A stretch of 64,000 bases of DNA from Candidatus Omnitrophota bacterium (GCA_043823005.1 JBDRBG010000013.1:25233-89232), one strand, 5' to 3'. Counted from the stretch's first letter, positions 10,029 to 29,176 are shown. The notes: generated by a model from the letters alone, not told the origin. Numbers and translations are program-made.

Positions 10029-10106
10029 GTCCCCATCGTCTAGCCCGGTCTAGGACACCAGATTTTCATTCTGGCGACAGGGGTTCGAATCCCCTTGGGG
10101 ATACCA
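10029..10106 (+). tRNA. tRNA-Glu (anticodon TTC)
   Basis: Cloverleaf closely resembling E. coli tRNA-Glu (GTCCCC...GGGGTTCGAATCCCC...CCA). The anticodon loop is TTTTCAT and CCA is encoded. Confidence 0.85.
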
Positions 10107-10263
10107 ATATTTCACAAAAGGCCTTTTCCGAAATTTATAAGGGAAGGCCTTTTTGTGTAGAGGGAGAGTGAAAAGCAGCGGCAAGCGTTATTTGGTAGAC
10201 ATTTGACGGTTAGCTGTTTGATAGTAAACGGTCAACGAACTAACGGTTAACCGTCAACTAAAA

Positions 10264-10302
10264 CCGTCTTTGCGAGGGAGCAAGAGCGCCCGCGGCAATC
10301 TA
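10264..10302 (+). repeat. family-1 intergenic repeat (CGTCTTTGCGAGG..GCGGCAATCT)
   Basis: CCGTCTTTGCGAGGGAGCAAGAGCGCCCGCGGCAATCT, preceded by the ACGGTTAACCGT palindrome module. Confidence 0.85.
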
Positions 10303-10364
10303 AAGAAGGGTATAGTCCGGGAGCATATGATATACTACATACGGAAAATACAAAAGAGGTAAAT

Positions 10365-10901: not shown

Positions 10902-10908
10902 CAGAAAA

Positions 10909-12765
10909 ATGTGCGGAATTATAGGATATACAGGAAACCGGGAAGCGGTACAAGTTTTGATGGAAGGATTAAGCCGTCTGGAATACCGCGGGTATGATTC
11001 GGCCGGAGTAGCTGTTCTGGAGGACGGGGAACTCTATCTTCGCAAGAAAAAGGGAAAACTCGCGGTATTGGCCGATGAGCTCAACCGGAATCCGCTTACC
11101 GGAGATACAGGGATAGGCCATACCCGGTGGGCAACGCATGGAGTGCCTAATGATGTAAACGCGCATCCGCATGCGGATAATAGATGTGATATCGCGGTTG
11201 TGCATAACGGAATAATTGAAAATTATCAGGAAATAAAAGAAGAACTTCAACGCAAAGGGTATGTTTTTTCTTCGGATACAGACAGCGAAGTAATCGCGCA
11301 TCTTGTGGCGGATAATTATAGAGGAGACCTCAGAATCGCATTAAAAACAGCGCTTGAAAAACTAAAAGGGTCTTTTGCTATCGGCGCGGTGCATAAAAAA
11401 GAAGCCGGGAGGATTGTGGGTGCTAGAAGGGATAGTCCGTTGATCCTGGGAATCGGGGAAAACGAGCATTTTATCGCAAGCGATATTCCCGCAGTTTTGG
11501 AATACACAAAAAACGTTATATATATAGAAAATAATGAAATGGTAGATTTGCATCCGGACAGATATGAGCTTTATGATATAAAGGGAGAAGAGATAAAGAG
11601 GAGTTCTACTTTTATTAAATGGGACATTTCTCAGGCAGAAAAAAAAGGGTATAAACATTTTATGCTTAAAGAAATTTTTGAACAACCAAAGGTATTAAAA
11701 AATATTTTCAAAGAACGGGTAAAAGCGGGAAAAGTAGAATTCGAAGAACTTGAAATACAGGAAGAAGATTTTAGAAATATTACGAACATAGCGATTGTTG
11801 CCTGCGGAACAGCTTATCACGCGGGACTTACAGCCAAGTATATTCTGGAAAAATACAGCAGGATACCCGTTTGGGTAGACACATCAAGTGAATTCAGATA
11901 CAGGGATCCGATTGTGAACGCGAAGAGCCTGGTTATAGTGATATCTCAATCAGGAGAAACCGCGGATACGCTGGCGGCATTAAGAGAGGCAAAAATACGG
12001 GGAGCCAAAGTTCTGGCAGTGTGCAATGTTCTGGGCAGTTCGATATCCAGAGAAGCAAACGGAGTTATTTATACGCACGCGGGACCCGAGATAGCGGTTG
12101 CTTCTACAAAAGCGTATACAGCCCAGCTGGCGATATTATATCTTTTCGCGTATTATCTCGCGAATATACAAAATAAAAAAGATCGATTTGAGCCGGAATT
12201 TTTAACCGAGATACAAAAAATTCCGGATATGACAGAAGAACTATTAAATGATTATTGCGGAGAAGATAATCAGATCGCAGAGTACGCGGCAAAATTTCAT
12301 GAATATTATCTTGCAAGAAACAATAAGAGCTGTTTTCTTTATCTCGGCAGGAACATTAACTATCCAAACGCTTTAGAAGGAGCTTTAAAACTGAAAGAAA
12401 TTTCTTATATCAGCGCAGAAGGATATCCCGCAGGAGAGATGAAGCACGGGCCCATAGCGTTGATTGACGAGAACCCATGGGTTGTGTGTATCGCTCCTCG
12501 ATCCGAGACGCACGAGAAGATGTTGTCTAATATGCAGGAAATAAAAGCAAGAGGCGGGATAGTTATTGCTATAGTGACAAAAGGGGAAAAAGGGATGAAA
12601 GAAAAAGGAGCGAATTATGTGATAAACATACCGTCGGTCCCGGAATTTTTTTCCCCGCTTTTTGTTGTGCTTCCGCTTCAGCTGTTGGCATACTATGTAG
12701 CGGCGGAGTTTGGATATGATATAGATCAGCCAAGGAATCTCGCGAAATCAGTTACTGTGGAATAA
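10909..12765 (+). CDS. glmS: glutamine--fructose-6-phosphate aminotransferase
   Basis: 618 aa with the N-terminal MCGIIGY Ntn-amidotransferase domain and two SIS domains. Confidence 0.95.
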   Translation: MCGIIGYTGNREAVQVLMEGLSRLEYRGYDSAGVAVLEDGELYLRKKKGKLAVLADELNRNPLTGDTGIGHTRWATHGVPNDVNAHPHADNRCDIAVVHNGIIENYQEIKEELQRKGYVFSSDTDSEVIAHLVADNYRGDLRIALKTALEKLKGSFAIGAVHKKEAGRIVGARRDSPLILGIGENEHFIASDIPAVLEYTKNVIYIENNEMVDLHPDRYELYDIKGEEIKRSSTFIKWDISQAEKKGYKHFMLKEIFEQPKVLKNIFKERVKAGKVEFEELEIQEEDFRNITNIAIVACGTAYHAGLTAKYILEKYSRIPVWVDTSSEFRYRDPIVNAKSLVIVISQSGETADTLAALREAKIRGAKVLAVCNVLGSSISREANGVIYTHAGPEIAVASTKAYTAQLAILYLFAYYLANIQNKKDRFEPEFLTEIQKIPDMTEELLNDYCGEDNQIAEYAAKFHEYYLARNNKSCFLYLGRNINYPNALEGALKLKEISYISAEGYPAGEMKHGPIALIDENPWVVCIAPRSETHEKMLSNMQEIKARGGIVIAIVTKGEKGMKEKGANYVINIPSVPEFFSPLFVVLPLQLLAYYVAAEFGYDIDQPRNLAKSVTVE

Positions 12766-12828
12766 GAAACAACGCGGGGCTTGACCCTGACAAGCGGCTG
12801 GGATATAATAAGCTTTTTAAAATTAATG

Positions 12829-12906
12829 GGGCGATTAGCTCAGCTGGTTTAGAGCGCTACCCTTACAAGGTAGATGTCGTAGGTTCGACTCCTACATCGC
12901 CCACCA
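12829..12906 (+). tRNA. tRNA-Val (anticodon TAC)
   Basis: GGGCGATTAGCTCAGCTGG...CTTACAA anticodon loop...GGTTCGACTCC...ATCGCCCACCA. Confidence 0.85.
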
Positions 12907-12977
12907 GCATTTTCGGCTATGCCAAAAGCCTTGCGCGGAAAAACACTAGAAGGGTAGAGAGGGAGAGCGACCCATAA

Positions 12978-13048
12978 CGTCTTTGCGATGGAGTGAAGGG
13001 GAGCGCGGTCCGCCAGAGGCGGATCCGCCTTTGGCGGACACTCTCGCA
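12978..13048 (+). repeat. family-1 repeat, long form, with GGCGGATCCGCC hairpin module
   Basis: CGTCTTTGCGATGGAG...CGCGGTCCGCCAGAGGCGGATCCGCCTTTGGCGGACA. Confidence 0.8.
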
Positions 13049-13167
13049 GTAAAAGGAAAAAGCTCTTTTAAAAAAGACCAAGCATTTTTCCGGAAACCTT
13101 TTTTTGTGAAGAACTAATAAATTTGACGAAAAAAGGTTTCTGTGCTATAAATAAAAACACATTTTTA

Positions 13168-13244
13168 GGGGTGGTAGTTCAGTTGGCTAGAACGTCGGAC
13201 TGTCGATCCGAAGGTCGCGGGTTCAAGCCCCGTCCGCCCCGCCA
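13168..13244 (+). tRNA. tRNA-Asp (anticodon GTC)
   Basis: GGGGTGGTAGTTCAGTTGG...CTGTCGA anticodon loop...GGGTTCAAGCCCC...CCGCCCCGCCA. Confidence 0.85.
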
Positions 13245-13248
13245 TAAA

Positions 13249-13286
13249 AATAAGGCAGCTTTTTAAAAAGCTGCCTTATTTTTTCA
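13249..13286 (+). terminator. rho-independent terminator after tRNA-Asp
   Basis: Perfect 9-10 bp stem TAAGGCAGC/GCTGCCTTA followed by a T-run. Confidence 0.7.
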
Positions 13287-13365
13287 GAGAGAGAAACAAT
13301 TCAAAGGACTGTTTCGAAATACCCTAAAAGTGTCATGTGTCAAAAGCCAACTTTTGTCTTTGCGA

Positions 13366-13418
13366 GGGAGCGAAGCGACCGCGGCCCTCCTTAGGCGGAT
13401 CCGCCTTTGGCGGACAAT
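13366..13418 (+). repeat. family-1 repeat, long form
   Basis: GTCTTTGCGAGGGAGCGAAGCGACCGCGGCCCTCCTTAGGCGGATCCGCCTTTGGCGGACA. Confidence 0.85.
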
Positions 13419-13675
13419 CCAATAAAAATATAGTTTACCCACAAAATTTATATTTTTATTGCTATTCGAGATTGCTTCGCCCGTTTCATGGGCTCGCAAA
13501 CACATTTTAACTCAGTCCCCTTATTTTCCCCAGTTACTTTTAAGTACACCCTAACAAATTACAATTTTACCCTTTGATTAAATGTTGTTCTTACAGTATA
13601 ATATATTTTAATTAAACCGAAAAAGAAAAAAGTTGCCGGATACCAAGAAAAATAAAATATAAAGAAGGGAGGCGT

Positions 13676-14038
13676 ATGGGAAAAATAATAAGCGGGGCAC
13701 AATATGTGCTAATCCTTTTTATGGTTTTCGCGCTTGTCGGTTGCGGAGTACCCAAAAGTGAACATGAAGTGCTTGAAAAAAAATACGAGCAAGTACAGAC
13801 AGAGATAGAAGCTTTTAACGAACAGGCTAAACAGGTTCAAACTAACAATGACGCGTTAAAAAAGAACGTCGAGGAGCTTAAGACGCAAGTGGCACAGCTT
13901 ACGATGGGGAATAGAAATTTAAAGAGTCAATACGAAAAGGCTTTAAAAGCAAATCAGGAGCTTGAGGCGAAAGCGGCAAATGAAACAGCCAAAAGAATAG
14001 AAGCCGGGAAAAGAACGGCAGATGAGTTAGCGGAATAA
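13676..14038 (+). CDS. coiled-coil lipoprotein, hypothetical
   Basis: Signal peptide plus lipobox (ALVGCG), followed by a Q/K/E-rich heptad region. Confidence 0.5.
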   Translation: MGKIISGAQYVLILFMVFALVGCGVPKSEHEVLEKKYEQVQTEIEAFNEQAKQVQTNNDALKKNVEELKTQVAQLTMGNRNLKSQYEKALKANQELEAKAANETAKRIEAGKRTADELAE

Positions 14039-14067
14039 TTTATTGATAACGGTCTAAATATATACCA

Positions 14068-14106
14068 ACAAAAAAGGAGAAGGCAAACAAAGGCTTCTCC
14101 TTTTTT
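14068..14106. terminator. bidirectional hairpin terminator between convergent genes
   Basis: AAGGAGAAG/CTTCTCCTT stem flanked by an A-run and a T-run. Confidence 0.6.
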
Positions 14107-14398
14107 ATTGGTTAAAAAGTTGATTTTGCAGGATCTTTTGTCCTGTCGGAGTTTTAATCAAAGCAGCGGTTACTGTACTTCCGGAATCGATTAGTTTACC
14201 GGCAAGGTTTCCTGTAACCGCGATAGTCGTACCCGCGGCGTCCGCTATTTTTCCGACAGAAGACGCGATCGCGCCCGTAGTTTTAAGCGCGTGTTTTGGA
14301 ATGTCCAGGATAGCGCAGCCGGACAGGAAAGAACAAAGAATGGAAAAGACTAAAAAACGCATAACATTAAGTATACCGAAAAAAACAGACCAAAACAA
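14105..14398 (-). CDS. small lipoprotein, hypothetical
   Basis: Signal peptide plus LSGCA lipobox, followed by a Gly/Ala/Thr-rich mature part. Confidence 0.45.
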   Translation of the reverse strand: MFWSVFFGILNVMRFLVFSILCSFLSGCAILDIPKHALKTTGAIASSVGKIADAAGTTIAVTGNLAGKLIDSGSTVTAALIKTPTGQKILQNQLFNQ

Positions 14399-14504
14399 AC
14401 GATAGACTACTATTAAAGAATAAAATTATTGTTTGTAACCTTGAAAAAGACAGGGTTACATGATAAGCTTTTGCCTGTGCAGACGCGCAAAAAAGGAGGG
14501 ATAA

Positions 14505-15548
14505 ATGAAAATAGGTATAATGGCTGCTTGGAATACAACAAGCGGTGTGGCCATGCACGCGGAGCCCATTGGCAAAGCCCTTAGGGCAATGGGACATAAA
14601 GTTACGGTGTTTTCTTTTGACAGGAACGACCATCACGGAGAAGGGATAACAGCGCACGATGAAAACTATGTTATACGGTGTTTTGGTACAAGAACGCACA
14701 CCAATCTATTAGATCCCCGGCCGTTTATTAACGCGGATTTTGATGTGCTGATGGTAGAAGACCTGGGAATGCTTCCTGTCGACAAACTGGCGAATATATT
14801 CCCTATTTTAAAAAAGAAAGCAAAAATAATTCATGTTGTTCACGAAAATAGACTTACCGAACATTCCTGGTTTTACAAACTGGATTGGGATAAAGTGGTT
14901 TATTTTGACCATCGCCAGGATTTTTTAAAAAAAGTCTATCCGGATGCTGTATATATTCCGTTCCCGTGTTTTCCTCTGCGAAGAGGAAACAAAGAAGCCG
15001 CGAGAAAAAAGCTAAAACTTCCTCTGGACAAAAAAATAATCTGTTCTTTTGAGCACAGAGGATATCATTCTTATTATAGGGATCTTCCTCCTGAGCTCAA
15101 GAAAAAAGCAGTATTATTGTATCTTATTACGCCTGATTATGAAATGCTGGAAGCTTTGACCCCGACCAGCTGGAGGATTATAAAAAAGAAAGCAACGTTA
15201 TCAACAAAAGAACTGGACAGTTATTTGTTTGCGTCGGATGTTATGATTCTTCATAAATTTCAGAGCCGGTTTCACGCAGTGGTATCTTCAACTGTTTTCC
15301 AGGCGCTGGGCACAGGTTGTCCTATTTTCGTTCCGCAACAATCCGATTTTTTCCATAGTTGGAAAGATGAAGTTGTTCATTACAGGGACAGTACGGCGCT
15401 TAATAAAAAACTGGAAGAATTACTTAAAGATGAAAACAAAAGAAAACGGCTAACATACGCGGCAGACAAATATGTTGTGGAACATTCACCCGAAAAAATA
15501 GCAAAACAATTTGTGGATTTATTCGAAAGCATATTAAAGAAGAAATAA
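14505..15548 (+). CDS. putative glycosyltransferase (GT-B / GT4-like)
   Basis: 347 aa with an N-terminus MKIGIMAAWNTTSGVAMH and a C-terminal half resembling GT4 folds. The assignment is from general resemblance only. Confidence 0.4.
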   Translation: MKIGIMAAWNTTSGVAMHAEPIGKALRAMGHKVTVFSFDRNDHHGEGITAHDENYVIRCFGTRTHTNLLDPRPFINADFDVLMVEDLGMLPVDKLANIFPILKKKAKIIHVVHENRLTEHSWFYKLDWDKVVYFDHRQDFLKKVYPDAVYIPFPCFPLRRGNKEAARKKLKLPLDKKIICSFEHRGYHSYYRDLPPELKKKAVLLYLITPDYEMLEALTPTSWRIIKKKATLSTKELDSYLFASDVMILHKFQSRFHAVVSSTVFQALGTGCPIFVPQQSDFFHSWKDEVVHYRDSTALNKKLEELLKDENKRKRLTYAADKYVVEHSPEKIAKQFVDLFESILKKK

Positions 15549-15587
15549 AACACAAAAGAACCGGTTAGTTGACAGGAGAGCCTTTTT

Positions 15588-15649
15588 TGCCTTTGAGAGC
15601 GACCCCCGGGAGAGCGGTCCTCCTGAGGCGGATCCGCCTTTGGCGGACA
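15588..15649 (+). repeat. family-1 repeat, degenerate long form
   Basis: TTGCCTTTGAGAGCGACCC..GAGCGGTCCTCCTGAGGCGGATCCGCCTTTGGCGGACA. Confidence 0.6.
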
Positions 15650-15673
15650 AGCTCATAAAGAAGGGGAAAAAAA

Positions 15674-16312
15674 ATGAGCGGACTTATAGCTAAAGAATTA
15701 AAAAAGCATATCCCGTTTACTGCGTTCGGAGCGCTGACAGGAATAGTTTTGATGGCGATTTTTTATAATCTTTCATATAGTGTCGCGTACAAGGCGTTTT
15801 ATTTTCTTCATCCACTGCATGTTGTTTTAAGCGCGATGGTTACAGCGGCTATGTATAAAAACTATAAATGCGCGAATGATAAAAAAAAACGTAATATTGT
15901 AACTTTACTGATTGTCGGTTTTGTCGGGTCTATCGGGATAGCAACTCTTAGTGACTCTATTCTTCCGTATCTGGGAGAAAGACTGTTAAACATGGAACAT
16001 GCGGAGCCTCATGTGGGGTTTATTGAAAAATGGAACATAATATTTCCGTTAGCCGGGTTAGGAATAGCCATAGCCTATATATATCCAAAAACACAGTTTC
16101 CTCACGCGGGACATGTTCTTATAAGTACATGGGCATCTCTTTTTCATATACTGATGGCTAACACGAGACCTTTAAGTTTTTTTGTTTCTTTAGGAATATT
16201 TTTGTTTTTGTTTCTTGCGGTATGGGTTCCGTGCTGTATAAGTGATATTGTTTTTCCCCTTCTTTTTGTGGGGAACAAAGAAACGACAAAAGCAAAGGGA
16301 ACAGATCTTTAA
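15674..16312 (+). CDS. integral membrane protein, hypothetical
   Basis: 212 aa with several hydrophobic helices. Confidence 0.45.
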   Translation: MSGLIAKELKKHIPFTAFGALTGIVLMAIFYNLSYSVAYKAFYFLHPLHVVLSAMVTAAMYKNYKCANDKKKRNIVTLLIVGFVGSIGIATLSDSILPYLGERLLNMEHAEPHVGFIEKWNIIFPLAGLGIAIAYIYPKTQFPHAGHVLISTWASLFHILMANTRPLSFFVSLGIFLFLFLAVWVPCCISDIVFPLLFVGNKETTKAKGTDL

Positions 16313-16333
16313 TCCCTTACAGAATGTTATACT

Positions 16334-16729
16334 ATGAAAGAAGAACGAAAAAATCCTCGTTATAAAGCGGCATATTTTCTGGAAATGGAAACCGGAAAGA
16401 AGAACATCGCGCTTGAGCTTATAGATTTAAGCAAATGCGGGATATCGTTTTTATCTCCCCAAAAACTCCGAAAAGGAACAAATCTCAGGGTAAGGATCTT
16501 TTTTAAAACAAAAAAGGTCAGTTTAGACGCGAAAGTGATAACCGCGGAAACTTCTGATAAAAACAAAACTCTTATAGGAGCAGAACTGCTTAGTGTCCCG
16601 GAAGAATTCAAAACCATTCTTGATAAAGAAATAGACGAAATCCAGAAACTTCAGATAAAACTAAACGTTCGAAGACAAGACCCAGTTTCTTTTAAACAAG
16701 CTTCCGCAGAATATTTAAATAATGAATAG
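16334..16729 (+). CDS. PilZ-domain protein (c-di-GMP binding)
   Basis: Contains RKNPR (RxxxR) and DLSKCGISF (DxSxxG) motifs. Confidence 0.6.
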   Translation: MKEERKNPRYKAAYFLEMETGKKNIALELIDLSKCGISFLSPQKLRKGTNLRVRIFFKTKKVSLDAKVITAETSDKNKTLIGAELLSVPEEFKTILDKEIDEIQKLQIKLNVRRQDPVSFKQASAEYLNNE

Positions 16730-16826
16730 TGTTTGGTGAACAGTGAATGGTGTCTTGTCCTGACATAGCTTGGAGGAGGAATGCAAAATAGCGGTTGGTG
16801 AATAGGAAAAAGGGAAAACATCCCAT

Positions 16827-16869
16827 CCGTCTTTGCGAGGCACGAGGCAAACGAGTGCCGCGGCAATCT
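16827..16869 (+). repeat. family-1 repeat
   Basis: CGTCTTTGCGAGGCACGAGGCAAACGAGTGCCGCGGCAATCTC. Confidence 0.85.
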
Positions 16870-17009
16870 CGAAAGAAACAGACATAAACACTCAATCTTT
16901 AAGCCCTTAAGATTTTCGGACAGCTCTTGCCGTAGATTAAATAGGGATGTACACTTGGGAAAATGAATTTGTAAAGTAAAAGCTATTCAATAAACACAAA
17001 AAGGGGGCC

Positions 17010-17606
17010 ATGATGAATAAAATATTTGCGGGTTTAATGGTATTAATTTTTATTTTTTCGATTTTACCGGATATTTCATACGCTCAGTCAGATTCAGGGG
17101 TACAACAGATAAAACAGGAGATAGAAAACCATAAAGCCGCTATACACAGGTTGAGAAACAAAATCGCCGAGATAAAAGGCGCTCCGCCTATTAGGGAATA
17201 CCAGGGGTCAGATGAAGGCGAATCTTACGCGGAAGAATATTACGATGAATCTGGTGATGAATATGCGGGCGACGAAAACACAACAACAGGAGAAGGATAT
17301 GAAGGCCGTCGTATGGGAGAACATAAAGTTCCCCCTCCTGGAATGAGAAAATATAAAGGCGCGGTTTCTCTGGACTTAAAACATAAACAGGGTATGCGGG
17401 ATAAAAAACTTATGTCAGGGGAAAGAAAAGGTTCTGTTGAAGTCCAGGGAAAAAGAGGAGGCCGTCCGGGAGGCCCCAAAGGGAAAGGCCCGGCTGGGAA
17501 GGGAAAAGGTTCTGGTGGATTTAAAGCTAAGCGGCTTGTAGGAAAACCAGGCGGTGGCGGAAATCGTCCGGTTGGCGGCGGCAGTTCCAGAGGCGGGCGA
17601 AGGTAA
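17010..17606 (+). CDS. secreted Gly/Lys-rich low-complexity protein, hypothetical
   Basis: Signal peptide followed by GKGxxG and GGG repeats. Confidence 0.45.
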   Translation: MMNKIFAGLMVLIFIFSILPDISYAQSDSGVQQIKQEIENHKAAIHRLRNKIAEIKGAPPIREYQGSDEGESYAEEYYDESGDEYAGDENTTTGEGYEGRRMGEHKVPPPGMRKYKGAVSLDLKHKQGMRDKKLMSGERKGSVEVQGKRGGRPGGPKGKGPAGKGKGSGGFKAKRLVGKPGGGGNRPVGGGSSRGGRR

Positions 17607-18030
17607 AACGATTTATACAAGATATTAAGATAGCAAAAAAGAGGCTCTTGGAAAATTTATTTTTCAGAGTCTCTTTTTTTGTCTGCGCTAGACAGAAACA
17701 AAAAAAGAACGCGGCAAATAATTAACAATACAAAAGTTATTTTTAATGATTGATAAAAAACGAGATTTTTGGAAAATAAAGGTAGCTTTGATTAAGTTAA
17801 CCAAGAGTTTTGAATAAATTTAGTGATACATCCTAGAGAGGAATACATCAAAGACGTTCTTCACAGTTTTTCATTCCACGCATTTTCAGAACGAACATTT
17901 ATATATCACAAAAATAACACGATCTAGACATGCAGTTTGTTTTTTTAACAGCTTTATTGCTTCCAGGGACAACAACTACGAAGAAGCTATTTTGCAGGAT
18001 TCGTTAAATAATTACTTTTAAGGAGGCAAT

Positions 18031-21000
18031 GTGTTTAAAAAAGTATTGGTTCTGGTGGTAAGTTTTTTATTAATCAGTCAAAACATTCCGTGTTTTTCTT
18101 CTCCCATTTCGGCTCACTCTCAGCAAAACGTACAAATAACGACATTGTTTAATTTAGCTGATCAGGAAGACGCCTATACGGTGGCTTTAGCAAAATATTT
18201 TTTTGTTTTTTTAGATAAATTAGATACAACATTACAGGGAGCCGATTTTAAGAATGTTGAAAAATTAATTAAGGCGCGGGTCGAACAATTCCAAGACGGA
18301 GCAAAAACCCTCATTAAACACGAGAGAGAGACAAAAAAAGGAATTGTTGAAAAAAATTTGCCAATGATTAAGGTTGATGAAAGCGCAGGCGAACTGTTAG
18401 TTATTATGTCTGATTATATCGTTAGGTATTATAACCCAAAAACATCTAAGAAAGATCAAATTTTAGGAGAAGAGACATTCAAAGAATATTCTTATAAGGT
18501 TAGCGAAGAAGACGATATTAATGGTCGATTGAGAAAACAAATACTCCAAAGAGGGAAAGAACCAGTTTTGGTAAAGTTGCTAATGGAAATGCAAGACAAA
18601 AAAGAGCGGGATGTAACAATAGACGAAATAGCTCAGTTATTGTTATCCCGCAACGAACAAGAATATGTTCTAAGCCTGATGCTTTATATCTTAAATGCTA
18701 TAGAAGAAGTAGGCGAAGATTTTGTGGATGATAAGGTAAATAGGATTTATGAGCAGGCAGACAATATAATAAAGACTGTGGAAAAAAAACTTTTAGATAC
18801 AAAAGATATCAAAAAAAAGATAAAAAACGAATCGAATATAAGAGAAATGTACAGGCATAATTATCCGTTTATTCGCAGGAAAGCCGATGTGGATGGAAAC
18901 TTAAATGAAATAGTGATACATGTTGGAGAGTATGCTTTGCGGTATTATAATGGACAGACAGCGTACGCGAAATATGAGCTTGAAGATCCTGAAGATTCGA
19001 AAAACGCGGAACCGGTCTTTTATTCAGCTGTACAAGAAGGTCCAGTTGATGGGGCTCTACGGGTGCAATTGTTGAAAGTCGAAGACGACGCTGATGCTTC
19101 TCCGGCAGAAACTCCAATAATCTCTGCGGTAAACGCGAGAAACGAACAAAACAAAAGTAATTATCCTTCAGATATAAAACGAGAAGATCCGTATCTGTTT
19201 TTCAGGTTAAGAGAGTTAAGAATGCCTATATATTCGCAGAAAGATGATACTTATTATGTCTGGGATAACGACAGCGTGGAAAAAGTAGTCAAGATGCGGC
19301 ATGATATGGGCGATAACGACGAGAAACTGCCCCCAGTTATTCAGATTGATGAAATGGGTAATGTGAAAGATAGAGTAAAAGAAGAGACTCCGTTATATGA
19401 TATTAATTTCAGAGCAGACCGGCAAAAACAATGGGTCGGGGTAATCCTGGAGAAATCTTTGACCCCGTTTAAGGTAGCGTATCAAATACTTAAAGCAGTT
19501 CTTGTTGTGACCACACAATATTTGCCGATAGTGAACAGCGAAAACGTAATTTTGGAAAAAACAAAAGTGGAAAACGGACTTGTCGAAGTCCTGACCAGAG
19601 AAGGTATTTATGTCAAATATGTATTTGACGCTGAAAAAGGAAAATTTATTCCCGCGTTTAGAGGCGGGCAGGAAGAGCCTTTTGATAAGGAACTGGAAGA
19701 CCTGGAATTTGGATCGATTTCAATGCCTGTTTTAATGACAGAAGAACAATGCAACAAACACGATCCTGCTGTAAAAATGAGGTTAAAAGATAAATATATC
19801 GGCTGGTTTTATGGCGATGTTCCAAAAGGATTAAAGCAGATACCGAATAAAGAATACAGAAAATATCCCGGATTAAGTATGTTTGTTTTAGCCAGAGCAA
19901 CCGCGACAAAAATAAGAGAAGCCAAAGAAGGTACGTTTGGTCTTACTAATCTTGACGGCCCGGATTTAATAGGCCATGTCGCAGGAAAAGACGTCGAGAA
20001 AATAACAGATCTTTTTGTTGAAACCGAAGAAGGCAAATTTGAATTAAAACAAGGGAACGGTTGGGATTGTGTTCTGGAGTGTCTTAAAATAGCTGACGCC
20101 GGACTTAATCTTATGATGAAAGAAGTAGAGGATAAAGAAGGAGTTTTTATTCTTGTTGGAGACCATGGGTCTGTGGATGATATGCGTTTTCCAAATCATT
20201 CGGCTAATGATGTTCCGATATTTATAATAGATTATGAGAATGAAGATATAAAACTTGTAAAATCTACAGGGAGTCAAAAGGATACGCAAGCAGATGTAGC
20301 TGTAACGATCCTTCATGTTTTAGGTATTGATAAACCGACGGAAATGACAGGAAAAAGTCTTTTGCCGGAAGATTATAAAGGAAGAAAAGACAGGATAGTA
20401 TGGCAGGTTATCTTAGACGGGTTCGGGCATACAGACCTTGATCCAGAGCAAAACGCTTTTCTCCGGGCAAGGGAAAAAGGCATAACGCCTACGATCAAAA
20501 AATTATATGACATGAAAAATTATGTGCTTCTTAAAGCCGCGGGGATGTATGCCGGACTGCGCGGGGGATGGGTGGAAGAAATATATGAAATGAATCAACA
20601 AGCAAAAAAAGAAGGAGGGGTTCAGTATGACCCTCTGAAAAGAAAAGCAATGATAACTCAACTGGAAAGCACACAAGACAATTATTGGAAAAAAATAAAA
20701 ATAGTGAATTATGATTATCGGGATATTCCGCAGGCACAGCTGTTGTGTTCTTATGAAAACGGGTTGGACATTCTTAAAAGGTCCAGTTTACTGCAGGATA
20801 AGATGTTTCTGGTTAATTATGACCAGGAGCACTTTATGACAAAAGATATTCCGGACAGAACCGTCGAGGTAGTTTGTCTTGATCTCAGACAAATAGGGTC
20901 AACTGAATATAATACATGGACGCTTGGTGCCGGACGTATAGTTGAACAATCTATAAGGCGTATAGATAAAAGATGGCTTAATGGCACAATGCTTAAGAGT

Positions 21001-22224
21001 AAAGCTCTCCAAAATTTCACAAAACACGCAAAACAAGAAGGCTATGCTCATATAGTCGGCATATTGCAGGAAGCAGGCGTACATGCGTCCGCAAGACAGT
21101 TATATTGGTTAATAGAACATTTAAAAAGGAACGGGGTGAATAGATTTGTATTAGATCTGGCGACTGACGGTAGAGATGAAGGGGGCAGGGACTCTTTGAT
21201 CAGGATAAAAGAACTTAGAGCCGCTTTAAAATTTTATGGCATACAGGATAAAGATTATGTCTTAAATTTGCGGGGCAGGGAGATCTGTTTTGACAGGGCA
21301 AAGAACTGGAACTTAACAGAAGCATGGATAAATGAACTTGTCTGGGGAAGTAGAATAGATAAAAGCATCGGCGCCGGATATATAACGAAAGAACTGATTT
21401 TAAATAGCTATGAAAAGGGGAAAGAACTCTGGGAAAAAATGATTGAAAAACGCTGGTTAGTAAAGGTTAATGACGAAGAAGCTAAAATACAGGACAAGGA
21501 ATGGAGGGAGGACGGAGATTTCGGAGGAGGACTTGATGAATACAAAAACTCTATAGAAGGTATTTTAAAACAGTCCAGATTCAAAAAACTGCTGGATAAC
21601 GAAGGGATCGTTGCGAATATCCTGCGTAATGCTTTCAGCGCATTGAACGAGAACCAAGAAAAACAAATATTGGCTTTTGATCTGGAGCTTGGGAATAAAA
21701 AAGCAGGCAGGTTGATAAAACAGCTTGTACAAGCTATTGAAGAAATGAAACAAGACAATATATTAAATAAGATCCTGAAAAACATAGAGATAATCAAAGT
21801 CAATGGAGCGGAGTTAGGTAACAGACTGGATATTTTGACTAAGAGCGAAACGGGCATAAAAAAAGAGAACATTATCATTATAGCGAAAAAGACAAATAAA
21901 AACTATTTTACGGGATATGATAGCGTCTCGACAATAGCGTATATAGATGATTCGGAACTATCGAAAGAAGACCTTCTTCCATTACCCGAAATAACGCTTT
22001 TTGCAATAGCAAAGCATCTGGGGTGGAGTGCGGATAAATTAGAGCATCTATATGCGTGCATTTTAAATGCAGAAAGTGTTAACAGCTTAGCTGAATTTAC
22101 TGAAAAATTCGGAAAAGACAAAACTTCCTTTATTGTAAAGATTATCCCTAAAGCCGTTAGGTTTGATATGCAGGAATTAAAGGAAGTTGTAGATCAAATG
22201 GTCAGGATATTAAAATACGCTTAA
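18031..22224 (+). CDS. large secreted protein with an embedded iPGM-like / alkaline-phosphatase-superfamily metalloenzyme domain
   Basis: 1397 aa with a signal peptide. The segment from about 19870 to 20400 has NLDGPDLIGHVAG, LVGDHGS and KPTEMTGKSLL, matching iPGM C-terminal motifs (PDMVGH, ADHG, PAEMTGKSL). Confidence 0.7.
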   Translation: MFKKVLVLVVSFLLISQNIPCFSSPISAHSQQNVQITTLFNLADQEDAYTVALAKYFFVFLDKLDTTLQGADFKNVEKLIKARVEQFQDGAKTLIKHERETKKGIVEKNLPMIKVDESAGELLVIMSDYIVRYYNPKTSKKDQILGEETFKEYSYKVSEEDDINGRLRKQILQRGKEPVLVKLLMEMQDKKERDVTIDEIAQLLLSRNEQEYVLSLMLYILNAIEEVGEDFVDDKVNRIYEQADNIIKTVEKKLLDTKDIKKKIKNESNIREMYRHNYPFIRRKADVDGNLNEIVIHVGEYALRYYNGQTAYAKYELEDPEDSKNAEPVFYSAVQEGPVDGALRVQLLKVEDDADASPAETPIISAVNARNEQNKSNYPSDIKREDPYLFFRLRELRMPIYSQKDDTYYVWDNDSVEKVVKMRHDMGDNDEKLPPVIQIDEMGNVKDRVKEETPLYDINFRADRQKQWVGVILEKSLTPFKVAYQILKAVLVVTTQYLPIVNSENVILEKTKVENGLVEVLTREGIYVKYVFDAEKGKFIPAFRGGQEEPFDKELEDLEFGSISMPVLMTEEQCNKHDPAVKMRLKDKYIGWFYGDVPKGLKQIPNKEYRKYPGLSMFVLARATATKIREAKEGTFGLTNLDGPDLIGHVAGKDVEKITDLFVETEEGKFELKQGNGWDCVLECLKIADAGLNLMMKEVEDKEGVFILVGDHGSVDDMRFPNHSANDVPIFIIDYENEDIKLVKSTGSQKDTQADVAVTILHVLGIDKPTEMTGKSLLPEDYKGRKDRIVWQVILDGFGHTDLDPEQNAFLRAREKGITPTIKKLYDMKNYVLLKAAGMYAGLRGGWVEEIYEMNQQAKKEGGVQYDPLKRKAMITQLESTQDNYWKKIKIVNYDYRDIPQAQLLCSYENGLDILKRSSLLQDKMFLVNYDQEHFMTKDIPDRTVEVVCLDLRQIGSTEYNTWTLGAGRIVEQSIRRIDKRWLNGTMLKSKALQNFTKHAKQEGYAHIVGILQEAGVHASARQLYWLIEHLKRNGVNRFVLDLATDGRDEGGRDSLIRIKELRAALKFYGIQDKDYVLNLRGREICFDRAKNWNLTEAWINELVWGSRIDKSIGAGYITKELILNSYEKGKELWEKMIEKRWLVKVNDEEAKIQDKEWREDGDFGGGLDEYKNSIEGILKQSRFKKLLDNEGIVANILRNAFSALNENQEKQILAFDLELGNKKAGRLIKQLVQAIEEMKQDNILNKILKNIEIIKVNGAELGNRLDILTKSETGIKKENIIIIAKKTNKNYFTGYDSVSTIAYIDDSELSKEDLLPLPEITLFAIAKHLGWSADKLEHLYACILNAESVNSLAEFTEKFGKDKTSFIVKIIPKAVRFDMQELKEVVDQMVRILKYA

Positions 22225-22321
22225 AAAATTAGAGGGAAAGTCATTTTTATTGACTTCATGATAAATGTGTGATAATTTATTGACCACGTAAAACACTATA
22301 TAGAAATACTATAAATAACGT

Positions 22322-22397
22322 GCCACGGTAGCTCAGTCGGTAGAGCAGGGGACTGAAAATCCCTGTGTCGGCGGTTCAATTCCGTCCCGTGGCACCA
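22322..22397 (+). tRNA. tRNA-Phe (anticodon GAA)
   Basis: GCCACGGTAGCTCAGTCGGTAGAGCAGGGGACTGAAAATCCC...GGTTCAATTCC...CCGTGGCACCA. Confidence 0.85.
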
Positions 22398-22400
22398 TTA

Positions 22401-22430
22401 AAAAAGGCTTTCTTAGGAAAGCCTTTTTTA
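22401..22430 (+). terminator. rho-independent terminator after tRNA-Phe
   Basis: AAAGGCTTTC/GAAAGCCTTT stem followed by a T-run. Confidence 0.7.
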
Positions 22431-22570
22431 ATGGTTAGTGTTATTTGCTGAGACATAAAAGTCTACTCGGAGCAAATAACACATGCTTTTGTCCGCATTA
22501 TTCACCTGTATCGTTCTAAAAAAGTTGACACTTTTTCTGTCGGAGCCGTCTCCTGACGGCGAACCTAATT

Positions 22571-26307: not shown

Positions 26308-27642
26308 ATGAAAAAATTTATGACTTTTACCTTTAAAGGAGGGATACACCCTTCTTATAAAAAAGAAATAAGCCTAAAAGAGTCTTTTAAACAGGTTGTT
26401 CTTCCCGATAAAATAGAAGTACCGATATCCCAGCATATTGGAAAACCGGCTGACCCTATTGTTAAAAAAGGGGATCTTGTAGAAGAAGGCAGTATTATTG
26501 CTGATTCCAACGCTTTTATTTCGTCCTGTATTCATTCTTCTGTAAGCGGGAAAGTTCTTGATATAAAGAAAGCTTTTCATCCCAGTTTGGGGCCGACACT
26601 ATCCATTTTCATAGAGAGAGACAAAAGCAAGGCGCCAAAGGAATATCCCAAGATAGAAGAACAATGTTGTTCAGCTCAAGAGATTATACAAAAGGTTCGG
26701 GACGCGGGAATCGTGGGTATGGGAGGAGCGGCTTTTCCGACTCATGTAAAATTAAGTGTTCCGGAAGGAAAGAAAATCGACACCTTGATCATTAACGGAG
26801 CGGAATGCGAGCCTTATCTTACATGTGACCATGTGATGATGTTAAACAAGACACAGGAAATATTAGAAGGGATAGGCCTTATTTTTCGGGTATTACAGCC
26901 GAAAAAAACCTATATAGCTATTGAAAATAACAAACAAAATGTGTTGGATGCTTTTCACTGTGGACTAAAAACAGCAGAATCGCTAAAAGGTGCAGAGGTA
27001 GAGATTATTGCGCTTGAAACAAAGTATCCTCAAGGAGGGGAAAAACAGCTTATTAGCGCTATTTCCGGCAAAGAAGTTCCGCCCGGAAAACTGCCTTTAG
27101 ATATAGGGTTTCTTGTGCAGAATATAGGAACAATATATGCCATATATGAAGCCGTTTATTTTAATAAGCCTCTTCTGCAAAGAATGGTTACGATTTCAGG
27201 GGATTGTGTGGAAAATCCGGGTAACTATATTGTAAAGATAGGAACAACTGTTACGGATTTAATAGAACTATGCGGGATCAAGTTTAAAAAGAACCCCAAA
27301 AAAGTTATTATAGGAGGACCTATGATGGGGTTTTCCCAGCCCGGGACAGATGCGGCTGTTCTTAAAAATACTTCGGGCATACTTTTTTTGTCTGAAGAGA
27401 CTGCTCCTGATTTTGAAGAAGGGCAATGTATAAGGTGCGCGAAATGTGTAGATGTATGTCCTGTAAGATTATCTCCTACGGATATTATGAGAAGCGCGAA
27501 AAAGAATTTATGGGACAAAACAGAAGAAGCCTACGTTACAGATTGTATGGAATGCGGGAGTTGTACATATGTTTGTCCCGCAAGGATTCCTCTTGTTCAA
27601 TATATAAAAGAAGCCAAAAGAATAATCGCAAAGAAAAAGTAA
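26308..27642 (+). CDS. rnfC: Rnf electron-transport complex subunit C
   Basis: 444 aa with two 4Fe-4S motifs (CIRCAKCVDVCP, CMECGSCTYVCP) and the INGAECEPYLTCD motif. Confidence 0.85.
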   Translation: MKKFMTFTFKGGIHPSYKKEISLKESFKQVVLPDKIEVPISQHIGKPADPIVKKGDLVEEGSIIADSNAFISSCIHSSVSGKVLDIKKAFHPSLGPTLSIFIERDKSKAPKEYPKIEEQCCSAQEIIQKVRDAGIVGMGGAAFPTHVKLSVPEGKKIDTLIINGAECEPYLTCDHVMMLNKTQEILEGIGLIFRVLQPKKTYIAIENNKQNVLDAFHCGLKTAESLKGAEVEIIALETKYPQGGEKQLISAISGKEVPPGKLPLDIGFLVQNIGTIYAIYEAVYFNKPLLQRMVTISGDCVENPGNYIVKIGTTVTDLIELCGIKFKKNPKKVIIGGPMMGFSQPGTDAAVLKNTSGILFLSEETAPDFEEGQCIRCAKCVDVCPVRLSPTDIMRSAKKNLWDKTEEAYVTDCMECGSCTYVCPARIPLVQYIKEAKRIIAKKK

Positions 27643-27646
27643 AGAG

Positions 27647-28591
27647 ATGAATAAACTTACTATAAATAGTTCACCCCATGTTTCTGCTCCGCTAGATACT
27701 CAGGGCATCATGAAAGGCGTTATAACAGCGCTTATTCCTGCCATGATTGCGGGTATATATTTTTTCAGATGGCAGGCAGTAAGCGTTATTATCGCAACAG
27801 TCGCGGGAAGTGTTGCCGCGGAATATCTGCTTCAGAAGCTTAGAAAGAAAAAAGTGCAAATAAAGGATTTTAGCGCAATTCTTACCGGCCTTCTTTTGGC
27901 ATTGGTTTTGCCTCCTGCAATTCCTCTTTGGATGGCTTTTTTTGGCGGAGTTTTCGCTATAAGTTTGGGTAAAGAAATATTCGGGGGATTGGGTAACAAC
28001 ATTTTTAATCCGGCGCTTCTTAGCCGGGCGTTTCTTATGGCGTCGTTTCCGGTTGTTCTGACAACATGGACCGCGCCTGTCGCTATAGATGCCGCGACTA
28101 TGGCGACACCGCTTGCTCTGGTAAAATTTGATCATATAATTACTCCATATTCAGATCTTTTTCTGGGTAATGTAGGAGGGTGTTTGGGAGAGACATCTTC
28201 CGCGGCATTGCTTTTAGGCGCGATATATCTTTTGTGGAAGAAAATAATTGATTACAGGATACCGTTAGCATATATAGGAACAGTAGTTGTTATTGCCGCG
28301 ATTACGCATATAATAAACCCGAAAGTTTTTGCGGGGCCTGTATTTCACGTGTTGGCAGGAGGCCTTTTAATCGGCGCGGTATTTATGGCGACAGATCCGG
28401 TAACCTCTCCGGTAACGCTTAAAGGAAGATGGATTTTTGGAATAGGATGCGGCTTTATTGCGATGGTTATACGTTTATGGGGAGGGTTGCCGGAAGGAGT
28501 GATGTATTCCATTTTATTGATGAACGCGTTGACTCCGCTTATTAATCGGGCGACAAAGCGGAAAAGGTTTGGAATAACGGGGGGGAAATAA
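27647..28591 (+). CDS. rnfD: Rnf complex subunit D
   Basis: 314 aa polytopic NqrB/RnfD-family protein. Confidence 0.85.
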   Translation: MNKLTINSSPHVSAPLDTQGIMKGVITALIPAMIAGIYFFRWQAVSVIIATVAGSVAAEYLLQKLRKKKVQIKDFSAILTGLLLALVLPPAIPLWMAFFGGVFAISLGKEIFGGLGNNIFNPALLSRAFLMASFPVVLTTWTAPVAIDAATMATPLALVKFDHIITPYSDLFLGNVGGCLGETSSAALLLGAIYLLWKKIIDYRIPLAYIGTVVVIAAITHIINPKVFAGPVFHVLAGGLLIGAVFMATDPVTSPVTLKGRWIFGIGCGFIAMVIRLWGGLPEGVMYSILLMNALTPLINRATKRKRFGITGGK

Positions 28592-28596
28592 AGATC

Positions 28597-29163
28597 GTGA
28601 AAAATTTTTTACAAAACAATGTTACAAAAATGATAGTTGCTCTGGCTGTGGTCGGAGCTGTTTCAGGTCTTAGTCTGGTTTTTGTTTATAAGTACGCGAT
28701 GCCCAAAATTAAAATAAACATAAATAAAGAAATGGACAAAGCAATAAAGAGTATTTTTCCGGGGACGGATAAAACGGAGAAAATAGAGGGTCAGCAAGAT
28801 GTTTTTAAGGTCAGAGATAAGAAAGGGATTTTATTGGGATATGCTTTTGTTGCAGAGGGAAACGGATACCAGGGGATAATAAAAATAATAGTTGGTGTGG
28901 ATGAAAAGATTATAAAAACCAAAGGGATGGAAGTTCTTGAGTCTCAAGAAACACCCGGGCTCGGAGCTGAAATCGCGAACGGAAAATTTAAAGATCAGTT
29001 TAAGGGGTTGTCTATTGTCCAGGCAATAGAGTATGTTAAGAACCAGAACCCGCAAAAACCTTATGAAATAGAAGCCATAACAGGCGCTACAATTTCATCA
29101 AGGGCAGTTGTAAATATAATCAACAAGAAACTAGCGGAAATACGCGAGGCGTTGCGTAAATAA
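28597..29163 (+). CDS. rnfG: Rnf complex subunit G (FMN-binding)
   Basis: 188 aa with an N-terminal TM segment and the EAITGATISSRAV FMN-binding motif. Confidence 0.8.
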   Translation: MKNFLQNNVTKMIVALAVVGAVSGLSLVFVYKYAMPKIKININKEMDKAIKSIFPGTDKTEKIEGQQDVFKVRDKKGILLGYAFVAEGNGYQGIIKIIVGVDEKIIKTKGMEVLESQETPGLGAEIANGKFKDQFKGLSIVQAIEYVKNQNPQKPYEIEAITGATISSRAVVNIINKKLAEIREALRK

Positions 29164-29176
29164 GGAAAAACAGGTC

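Follow-up and report, generated by a model that had tools for sequence, protein, structure and literature searches.

A probable phosphoglycerate mutase with a circularly permuted core in a large, leader-bearing protein of Omnitrophota

A 1,397-aa protein of a Candidatus Omnitrophota bacterium contains, at amino acids (aa) ~356–1113, an entire cofactor-independent phosphoglycerate mutase (iPGM) that is circularly permuted. Because its phosphoglycerate-binding residues are retained and its relatives are encoded beside, or are fused to, PGK, enolase, TIM, or PFK, we propose that it is a phosphoglycerate mutase. Judging from the sequence, it is fairly probable that the enzyme works via a phosphorylated Thr958, and that the modules at the ends of the protein address it or bring it together with other tagged enzymes of glycolysis.

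The gene lies at 18,031..22,224 (+) of the window (the whole 64-kb stretch of DNA that was analyzed). No other long open reading frame lies in that span, which bears out the 1,397-aa frame of the preliminary description. From stop to stop, the frame starts at 18,022, so the earliest possible start is the GTG at 18,031. The signals around the gene are:

18,020..18,026 (+), Shine-Dalgarno sequence AAGGAGG, read directly, 4 nt upstream of the GTG; the frame opens just 3 codons upstream
22,322..22,435 (+), tRNA-Phe and then a terminator-like hairpin (19 bp), context only

The hairpin shares 4 nt with the 3' end of tRNA-Phe, and this stretch is the end of the transcription unit. The gene's neighbors in the window encode a glycosyltransferase, a PilZ protein, response regulators, and a tRNA, and no glycolysis genes are among its immediate neighbors there. 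An enolase gene 10 kb downstream is canonical and lacks a leader, so a separate cytoplasmic pathway is present.

The preliminary description had recognized three iPGM-like motifs between 19,870 and 20,400. All three are real, lie within that interval, and are far above chance (each was located in the translation):

19,948..19,986 (+), motif NLDGPDLIGHVAG, aa 640–652
20,149..20,172 (+), motif ILVGDHGS, aa 707–714
20,332..20,364 (+), motif KPTEMTGKSLL, aa 768–778

The motifs had been taken for an isolated C-terminal domain with about 600 unassigned residues on each side. The core is indeed a metalloenzyme of the alkaline phosphatase (AP) superfamily, but the whole two-domain enzyme is present: aa ~356–640 and ~785–1113 of those flanks are the rest of it. 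The segments of the core are:

19,096..19,266 (+), family-specific insertion at the start of the permuted core, aa ~356–412, 'ARNEQNKSNYPSDI...PIYSQKDDTYYVWD' (model pLDDT ~90)
19,267..19,560 (+), transferase domain, second half (iPGM ~217–310), aa ~413–510, with R461 and R464 (R261 and R264 of iPGM)
19,561..20,367 (+), phosphatase domain, C-terminal part (iPGM ~311–511), aa ~511–779, with K536, D645, H649, D711, H712, and H723
20,398..20,946 (+), phosphatase domain, N-terminal part (iPGM 1–76), aa ~790–972, with ILDGFGH including D796
20,947..21,369 (+), transferase domain, first half (iPGM 77–~216), aa ~973–1113, with H1018, R1048, D1049, R1083, and R1089

In canonical iPGMs, the phosphatase domain is split (1–76 plus 311–511) and the transferase domain (77–310) is inserted between its halves. 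The linear order of phosphatase-N, transferase, and phosphatase-C is not kept here, as iPGM ~217–511 precedes iPGM 1–216. The chain begins midway in the transferase domain, at iPGM ~217. It continues through the C-terminal half of the phosphatase domain and a ~14-residue linker to the former N-terminus (ILDG...), and stops at iPGM ~216. Thus, it is now the transferase domain that is split, whereas the phosphatase domain runs uninterrupted. The core (~760 residues) also holds four family-specific insertions totaling ~250 aa. The one at its N-terminus is kept in permuted relatives but is missing from canonical iPGMs. Two more lie in the C-terminal part of the phosphatase domain, which houses the three motifs: one after K336 and one after the PDLIGH motif. 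The last (~100 aa, aa ~845–945) lies just before GSTEYN, the home of T958 (nt 20,902–20,904).

Both Pfam families named in the preliminary description score above their gathering cut-offs: Metalloenzyme (PF01676, E = 5e-11, 43 bits against a cut-off of 24.3) at aa 683–768, and iPGM_N (PF06415, E = 1e-26, 94 bits against 27) at aa 978–1156. A phmmer comparison with PDB entry 1EJJ (E = 2e-27) pairs query residues 425–555 with iPGM 225–356, 682–778 with 415–509, and 946–1107 with 50–209. Escherichia coli GpmM aligns in four segments, in the order 231–355, 419–510, 10–57, and 54–202. Canonical iPGMs can be aligned with the family over their full length once they are permuted artificially. The NCBIfam equivalog for iPGM (TIGR01307) matches in 4 separate stretches and scores 178.9 bits against a cut-off of 330.65; the protein is not an ordinary ortholog. 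The core is also predicted to have the three-dimensional fold of iPGM. With an AF2 model (pLDDT 75.9, pTM 0.73) as the query, the best 8 Foldseek matches in the PDB are all iPGM structures (probability 1.00), and every other match has E > 0.3. The TM-scores are capped at ~0.48 because the aligner depends on sequence order.

All six metal ligands are present (D796, D645, H649, D711, H712, and H723, corresponding to Asp12, Asp403, His407, Asp444, His445, and His462), and these Asp and His residues are invariant in all aligned members. The eight substrate-binding residues are present as well (H1018, R1048, D1049, R1083, R1089, R461, R464, and K536, corresponding to His123, Arg153, Asp154, Arg185, Arg191, Arg261, Arg264, and Lys336). 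The query has the canonical residue at 15 of the 16 catalytic positions that we checked, and 14 of the 16 are canonical in each of the 13 permuted members with insertions (at D154, one relative has Glu). The metal-binding residues listed in the preliminary description are thus kept as far as Asp and His are concerned, but the nucleophile Ser62 is replaced by Thr958 (GNSEVGH becomes GSTEYNT). Thr is found in 13 of 13 insertion-bearing permuted members, and Ser is kept only by a basal permuted form without insertions (P0024) and by the canonical enzymes. His66 is replaced by Thr962 in the query and is T, L, or H among the 13.

The chemistry is probably unchanged: D796, T958, D711, and H712, together with D645, H649, and H723, would form the binuclear metal site. 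The phosphate of 3-phosphoglycerate (3PG) would pass to Thr958; H1018, R1048, D1049, R1083, R1089, R461, R464, and K536 would hold and re-orient the glycerate; and the phosphate would go back to O2. The net reaction would be the reversible conversion of 3PG to 2PG, between PGK and enolase.

The family of the permuted core points to the same pathway. About 23 relatives are colinear with all or part of the core (E from 1e-282 to ~1e-35), and in nine of these the alignment covers most of its length. Canonical iPGMs score just ~85–115 bits, in 3–4 separate pieces. The relatives come from NCBI MAGs, JGI, Logan, and one single-cell genome; the permuted module has so far been found only in Omnitrophota and is mostly annotated as 'hypothetical.' It occurs in three settings: standalone beside glycolytic genes, fused to glycolytic enzymes, or framed by end modules as in our protein. 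Standalone genes adjoin PGK, enolase, FBPase, PPDK, or PFK genes. Among the relatives, one cluster (L002/L010) has the permuted iPGM followed by PGK, enolase, FBPase_3, and PPDK; P0004 has PFK upstream; the query's ortholog in L006 has a PFK-domain protein downstream; and L008 has a PGK-TIM fusion downstream that carries a leader (leader + PGK + TIM). Fusions with PGK, TIM, or enolase give proteins of 1,700–6,100 aa: P0006 is PGK + TIM + permuted iPGM, P0016 is permuted iPGM + PGK, and P0020 continues from the iPGM into what looks, by eye, like the N-terminus of an enolase. Relatives of the module are also found in proteins of 2,300–6,100 aa with HEAT, TPR, kinase, and methyltransferase domains. 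In P0004, P0013, and L008, the circle is cut at a second, different point.

Canonical iPGMs (GpmI/GpmM; 1EJJ, 1O98; PF06415 + PF01676; TIGR01307) share with our protein a two-domain fold (predicted here), the metal ligands and substrate-binding residues, and, through its relatives, the pathway context. They differ in that ours is cut at ~216/217, has the four insertions, and lies within a far longer chain with a leader and extra modules.

Some differences from canonical iPGMs count against a mutase. An alternative is that the permuted scaffold is active on another phospho-acid or phospho-sugar, or in intermolecular phosphate transfer, with the insertions and the Ser-to-Thr and His66 changes re-tuning its specificity. 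The score under the equivalog cut-off, the Thr nucleophile and loss of His66 in insertion-bearing members, and the location of the gene outside any glycolytic cluster in the window all fit with this. The four insertions are conserved, one of them is immediately ahead of the nucleophile loop, and their ~250 aa could have changed the specificity. The organism also encodes a canonical enolase, so a paralogous activity is possible. We nevertheless consider such a change of function unlikely. The eight residues that in canonical iPGM bind the glycerate carboxylate and the phosphate are kept among members of just 30–60% identity, except for the one conservative Asp-to-Glu change in a single relative, and the neighbors and fusion partners are exactly the makers of 3PG and the users of 2PG.

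The preliminary description had suggested a secreted phosphoesterase or sulfatase-like enzyme with extra binding domains, and a hydrolase of the AP superfamily (a phosphodiesterase included) could scavenge phosphate or break down polymers outside the cell. The leader does resemble a Sec signal peptide. Phosphopentomutase (DeoB) and the nucleotide pyrophosphatase/phosphodiesterases (NPP) have a binuclear metal core with a Thr nucleophile, and Thr is typical of NPP-type phosphodiesterases in this superfamily. There are weak matches to phosphopentomutase (NF003766, E = 0.0011, in the C-terminal part of the core at aa 683–778) and, at E = 0.006, to the C-terminal domain of a sulfatase. However, iPGM is by far the best match in both sequence and fold, and the formylglycine motif of sulfatases (C/S-x-P/A-x-R) is nowhere in the protein. 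DeoB, NPP, and the hydrolases of this superfamily do not have the transferase domain of iPGM with its Arg/His/Lys substrate cage, which is complete here. The supposed binding domains are the remainder of the enzyme plus modules that match no known binding domain. We see little chance that the protein is a hydrolase. Finally, it is very improbable that the permuted iPGM is a non-catalytic relic that, like other poorly conserved domains of large Omnitrophota proteins, has a structural or adhesive role in a surface or coat protein: although the protein is far larger than the enzyme within it, and such proteins are rich in divergent domains that resemble enzymes but have no clear role (West-Roberts et al., 10.1101/2023.11.21.568195), the metal ligands and substrate-binding residues are strictly conserved across a divergent family, which implies selection on catalysis.

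The leader, a duplicated N-terminal module, and a C-terminal module lie outside the probable mutase and are a common frame:

18,031..18,114 (+), Sec-type signal-peptide-like leader, aa 1–28, from hydropathy and inspection, with a putative cleavage site
18,115..18,579 (+), N-terminal family module, copy 1, aa ~29–183, from an HMM, with the motif 'ELLVIMSDYIVRYYNP'
18,616..19,080 (+), N-terminal family module, copy 2, aa ~196–350, from Smith-Waterman alignment, with 'EIVIHVGEYALRYYNG'
21,370..21,570 (+), charged linker, aa 1114–1180, with no family match; probably helical
21,571..22,221 (+), C-terminal family module, aa 1181–1397, from an HMM, alignment, and an AF2 model

An HMM of the N module built from 10 relatives, with the query left out, matches aa 4–183 (E = 2e-20). 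Copy 2 has only a weak HMM match (aa 257–310, iE = 0.012), but the Smith-Waterman score of aa 31–195 against aa 196–400 is 101, as compared to 36 ± 6 for shuffled sequences (z = 11, 0 of 300). The HMM of the C module, also built without the query, matches aa 1181–1397 (E = 1.3e-54). Matches to both HMMs occur only at protein termini. The C module (~215 aa) is always at the extreme C-terminus of the relatives, where it ends in '...IP.A..F...EL......L..A', and is modeled as an alpha/beta domain with 5 strands (pLDDT 76.6, pTM 0.79). Copy 1 of the N module has no match in Pfam, NCBIfam, or the PDB, the C module has no relative by sequence or fold in the PDB, and neither has a known relative that gives a function. 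The query fits an Omnitrophota family with a leader and an 'RYYN' N module first and the C module last. Elsewhere, the same modules enclose PGK, enolase, kinases, deaminases, and other cargo, and other proteins with this frame also carry HEAT, TPR, kinase, and methyltransferase domains. The frame probably addresses its cargo to one common place, on the extracytoplasmic side or at the membrane, and/or assembles it there.

The layout is reminiscent of type IX secretion cargo, in which an N-terminal Sec signal and a conserved C-terminal domain flank a variable enzyme. However, the type IX domain is a beta-sandwich of ~80–100 aa, in contrast to the larger alpha/beta C module and the additional conserved N module here, and we saw no secretion genes adjoining the genes with these modules.

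The leader, which the preliminary description had called a signal peptide, has the features of a Sec signal by inspection: a positive n-region (MFKK), an h-region of 12 hydrophobic residues (VLVLVVSFLLIS), and a c-region (QNIPCFSSPISA) with a putative cleavage site at ...SPISA|HS. By inspection it has neither a Tat motif nor a lipobox. In a scan of the whole protein, it is the sole segment whose 19-residue Kyte-Doolittle mean exceeds 1.6, and no hydrophobic segment follows it. In related proteins, nearly all of 27 leaders have a positive n-region and a hydrophobic core of 11–18 residues (our crude measure of the core undercounted 3 of the 27). The leader would be either a Sec signal peptide or a signal anchor, as its features fit both, and the protein would act as an exported or membrane-tethered enzyme. 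Its presence in a large protein with such a core is, as first described, an unusual architecture. It is hard to see what a mutase step beyond the cytoplasm would be for if the protein really is exported.

Several enzymes of sugar breakdown appear to be tagged or fused in this way in Omnitrophota. In very large Omnitrophota proteins termed Archaeovorins, TIM, GPI, FBPase, PGM/PMM, aldolase, and PPDK domains have been described, and the authors predict, with explicit doubt, an extracellular location for these proteins (West-Roberts et al. 2023 preprint, 10.1101/2023.11.21.568195). The main text of the preprint is silent on phosphoglycerate mutase, its permutation, and the N and C modules that our protein shares with its relatives. 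Our protein is from the same phylum but has only 1,397 aa and one enzymatic cargo. In Thermotoga, PGK and TIM are fused. Stramenopiles have TPI-GAPDH fusions with targeting peptides (PMC3527533). Like L008, these cases place consecutive glycolytic enzymes in one chain and/or have N-terminal targeting, but they are analogies only: they are from other lineages and are not known to involve a permuted iPGM or bacterial Sec-type leaders.

A doubtful but conceivable extension is that part of glycolysis or gluconeogenesis in Omnitrophota runs outside the ordinary cytoplasm. Sec-type leaders would address PFK, FBPase, TIM, PGK, permuted iPGM, enolase, and PPDK. These enzymes would be joined head to tail by the N and C modules, or covalently in giant fusions, and would work in an enlarged periplasm or internal compartment, at the cell surface, or inside prey. 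If so, the permuted mutase would take its place in a tethered assembly line for glycolysis, which these ultra-small, possibly predatory bacteria would use to exploit host metabolites.

In this protein, a two-domain textbook enzyme occurs in a naturally circularly permuted form, in which the continuous and the split domain have traded places. As the family preserves a basal Ser form, an insertion-rich Thr form, and a second cut of the circle, it is a ready-made system in which to study how permutation arises via fusion in multi-domain proteins. Because the module scores well under the NCBIfam cut-off, reconstructions of Omnitrophota metabolism may wrongly count the phosphoglycerate mutase step as absent. 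More broadly, central-pathway enzymes with leaders, common end modules, or giant fusions raise the question of where glycolysis takes place in these uncultivated, possibly predatory nanobacteria.

The query protein matches a solved structure of cofactor-independent phosphoglycerate mutase (iPGM; PDB 1EJJ) at E = 2e-27, and its alignments to solved iPGMs are out of order: query residues 425-555 correspond to iPGM residues 225-356, 682-778 to 415-509, and 946-1107 to 50-209. E. coli GpmM likewise aligns piecewise: along the query, its four segments run 231-355, 419-510, 10-57, and 54-202. A cut after residue ~215 and an exchange of the resulting pieces bring canonical iPGMs into end-to-end alignment with the query. 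This makes the core of the protein (aa ~356-1113) a complete, circularly permuted iPGM.

In the iPGM of Geobacillus, the phosphatase domain comprises residues 1-76 and 311-511 and the transferase domain comprises residues 77-310. By these domain limits, the permuted chain has its phosphatase domain in one piece and its transferase domain in two. The alignment also shows four insertions in the core that are conserved across the family:

Insertion 1, ~55 aa, at the new N-terminus of the core
Insertion 2, ~45 aa, after the Lys336 region
Insertion 3, ~30 aa, after PDLIGH
Insertion 4, ~100 aa, directly before the nucleophile loop

With 9 sequences as input, AF2 modeled the core at a pLDDT of 75.9 and a pTM of 0.73; confidence is high where the old C-terminus now joins the old N-terminus. 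When this model was compared to the PDB with Foldseek, the best eight matches were all iPGM structures (probability 1.00) and all others had E > 0.3.

An out-of-order alignment could also arise from a tandem duplication whose outer halves have decayed. We rejected this in favor of permutation: the outer 400 and 290 residues of the query have no leftover similarity to either iPGM half, and no decayed duplicate was found. Specifically, self-BLASTP of the query gave no internal match, and Smith-Waterman alignments of aa 30-424 and aa 1110-1397 to both halves of iPGM were at the level of shuffled sequences (z = −1.1 to 1.5). HMMs show that these outer parts are independent modules, which are described below.

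The preliminary description of this gene had proposed a secreted protein of the alkaline phosphatase (AP) superfamily with an internal iPGM-like segment. The three motifs quoted for that segment do lie within it (aa 640-652, 707-714, and 768-778), and the iPGM-type similarity is confirmed by Pfam (Metalloenzyme, E = 5e-11; iPGM_N, E = 1e-26). The NCBIfam model for iPGM matches at E = 1e-52, yet this is under its equivalog cut-off. The superfamily and the unusual context were recognized correctly, but the extent of the enzyme, which is a complete permuted iPGM, was not, and neither the phosphoesterase nor the sulfatase-like activity that was suggested is supported.

The active site is conserved when 14 permuted members are aligned with 6 canonical enzymes. 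All six metal ligands, whose conservation the preliminary description had left to be checked, are invariant (canonical D12, D403, H407, D444, H445, and H462, which are D796, D645, H649, D711, H712, and H723 in the query). The substrate ligands H123, R153, D154, R185, R191, R261, R264, and K336 are also kept (query H1018, R1048, D1049, R1083, R1089, R461, R464, and K536); the sole exception among metal and substrate ligands is a Glu at D154 in P0002, the closest ortholog of the query. The nucleophile, Ser62, is replaced by Thr in every permuted member that bears the insertions (GSTEYN; T958 in the query). One permuted member has GATEIN instead, so that the Thr is retained while the adjacent Ser is gone, which identifies the Thr as the conserved residue of this loop. 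The position of His66 is occupied by Thr, Leu, or His in permuted members. A sulfatase-like activity seems unlikely because the query protein lacks the formylglycine motif of sulfatases; it also has no Tat motif and no lipobox.

Relatives of the query came from searching 1.84 billion representatives exhaustively with HMMER and from a core-only search. About 23 proteins, with E-values between 1e-282 and ~1e-35, are colinear with the core or with part of it, and nine of these cover most of the core. Canonical iPGMs match the core with only ~85-115 bits, in 3-4 pieces. A word-index search with the full-length query matched only the query itself, and the same type of search with the C-terminal module alone gave no match. 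The family is lineage-restricted: all of the relatives with a named source are from Candidatus Omnitrophota/Omnitrophica, and GTDB species genomes, when scanned, yielded six loci, of which four are labeled Omnitrophota (one of these a single-cell genome), one is labeled Planctomycetia, and one is labeled "uncultured bacterium."

In a neighbor-joining tree (without support values), the permuted family is monophyletic and P0024 is basal. P0024 is a 5027-aa protein from a Logan assembly whose iPGM (aa ~3855-4376) has the same breakpoint, retains GNSEVGH and PDMVGH, and has zero insertions, and it looks like an evolutionary intermediate. Another relative, P0004, is nested within the query-type clade despite having the parts in another order (query 877-1111 and then 367-853), which means that the same circle was opened at a second, different point. 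Therefore, the family has been re-cut at least twice. P0013 and a protein from the single-cell genome (L008 1-6222) share the order of P0004; both are outside the tree.

What does the permuted enzyme do? In two Omnitrophota MAGs (loci L002 and L010), a gene for a permuted iPGM of 844-868 aa is followed directly by genes for phosphoglycerate kinase (PGK, 1053 aa), enolase (491 aa), FBPase_3 (1033 aa), and PPDK; in L002 (GCA_023818945.1), this glycolysis/gluconeogenesis cluster lies at 10001-22535. PFK precedes P0004. P0002 (locus L006) has the same architecture as the query, with N-terminal module, core, and C-terminal module, and the next gene encodes a leader-bearing 871-aa PFK protein. A protein with a leader, PGK, and TIM comes after the permuted iPGM in the single-cell genome. 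There are also fusions: P0006 (3450 aa) combines PGK, TIM, permuted iPGM, and a methyltransferase; P0016 combines permuted iPGM and PGK; and in P0020, the iPGM runs into an enolase-like N-terminus (as seen by eye in the sequence). Two further loci with relatives have uninformative or non-glycolytic surroundings. These neighborhoods and fusions and the intact substrate cage are most economically explained if the permuted module is still a phosphoglycerate mutase, in which case catalysis would proceed via phospho-Thr958.

We also noticed an SCSTNG stretch, which recalls the active-site SCTTNC of GAPDH, upstream of the PGK domain in P0028 (aa ~900-1200) and in P0025. Pfam gave no match for the P0025 fragment at E ≤ 1e-3 and only PGK for P0028 at E ≤ 1e-5. 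The stretch may belong to a very divergent GAPDH-like domain.

The query gene's own neighbors are non-glycolytic. The features of the window that we refer to are:

1838-9915 (+), dnaA, dnaN, gyrB, and gyrA, at the start of the window
16334-16729 (+), PilZ-domain protein, upstream of the query gene
18031-22224 (+), query gene
26308-31773 (+), complete Rnf-type operon (RnfC, RnfD, an FMN-binding subunit, two Rnf-Nqr membrane subunits, and an RnfB-like Fe-S protein)
32575-33861 (+), canonical leaderless enolase, 428 aa (Enolase_C, E = 2.5e-135)
34202-35170 (−), PfkB-family sugar kinase
35926-50718 (+), ORF of 4930 aa with two SecA modules

The query ORF is real, as first described, and is the sole long ORF at its locus; its protein is identical to a "hypothetical protein" from a Candidatus Omnitrophota MAG. 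The frame opens three codons upstream of the GTG at 18031, and AAGGAGG lies 4 nt before this GTG. Just past the preceding gene, the upstream gap of 424 nt has a stem-loop and then a T run (by eye; a terminator scan was silent), and the query gene is followed by a tRNA-Phe and then a strong hairpin, so the transcription unit looks monocistronic. Rfam found no riboswitch in the upstream gap; its only matches were tRNAs. GC skew is strong, constant, and positive across the whole window, and almost every gene lies on the + strand; the window is chromosomal DNA from the leading strand of the replication-origin region.

A STAS + PilZ protein is also found directly upstream of another relative, P0005 (L017 4106-4828). 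PilZ may be a recurring neighbor tied to c-di-GMP signaling, or this may be a coincidence. The Rnf-type operon fits with the fermentative or acetogenic metabolism that has been described for Omnitrophota (Seymour et al.). The 4930-aa ORF (SecA_DEAD in two stretches, E = 3.5e-146; two SecA_PP_bind and four P-loop_SecA matches) has four Fis-type HTH_8 domains near its C-terminus; the duplication of SecA within a giant protein is odd.

Outside of its core, the query begins with a leader, in which a positive n-region precedes a hydrophobic core of 12 residues; the protein has no other hydrophobic segment. One module, the N module, then occurs twice, at residues ~29-183 and ~196-350 (z = 11), and an HMM for this module from ten other proteins matches the query at E = 2e-20. 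An HMM for the C module, from the last ~225 residues of 18 other proteins, matches aa 1181-1397 at E = 1.3e-54. Both modules are strictly terminal in all proteins examined. The 4930-aa ORF has neither, and the window contains no other member. The cargo between the modules in other members is highly varied:

PGK (P0028)
Enolase (P0037), and HEAT repeats with enolase (metagenome contig L012)
Cytidine deaminase with GNAT
LMW phosphotyrosine phosphatase with TPR
GH13 domain
Protein kinases
HTH with TPR and methyltransferase
HATPase_c with CofD

Metagenomes were scanned for the C module with a tightened alignment of the module. On two metagenome contigs (L012 2-15023 and L015 2-14701), genes of this type are in tandem: a protein of > 3500 aa ends in a C module and, after a gap of ~15-40 nt, the next gene starts with a leader and an N module. 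This second gene has HEAT repeats, enolase, and a C module in L012, and HATPase_c, CofD, and a C module in L015.

The AF2 model of the C module is a five-stranded alpha/beta domain (pLDDT 76.6). The C module has no match in Pfam or NCBIfam, and Foldseek of its model against the PDB found no fold relative (best E = 0.04, TM < 0.35). The best match of its profile to the PDB (TAL repeats, E = 0.0026) is spurious. Several weak hints of a relationship to the SIS fold were rejected, as hhalign against the SIS domains of the window's GlmS gave a probability of 0.6%. We infer that the leader and the two modules serve in targeting or assembly; the protein may be exported or held at the membrane. The leader and modules form a previously undescribed modular frame, within which the core of the query is a variant of the known iPGM family.

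Leaders of the same type are found on the glycolytic enzymes that the L002 cluster encodes as separate proteins and on giant fusion proteins. Every enzyme of the L002 and L010 clusters, including the permuted iPGM, has a hydrophobic leader and then an (L/A)RR(I/V)K/R motif, and LR(V/I/A)P is in the equivalent place in P0004, P0013, P0007, and L008. This motif may be a processing or sorting signal. Because the enolase in the window is leaderless, the source organism has an ordinary cytoplasmic enolase beside the leader-bearing permuted mutase.

TIM, GPI, FBPase, PGM/PMM, aldolase, and PPDK domains were already noted in giant proteins of Omnitrophota, and were predicted, doubtfully, to be extracellular (West-Roberts et al., 10.1101/2023.11.21.568195). 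Neither that preprint nor the other Omnitrophota papers that we examined mention iPGM, the permutation, or the terminal modules, and our literature search found nothing on permuted iPGM or on leader-bearing glycolysis in Omnitrophota. The finding would gain much in weight should the tagged enzymes of glycolysis turn out to act outside of the ordinary cytoplasm.
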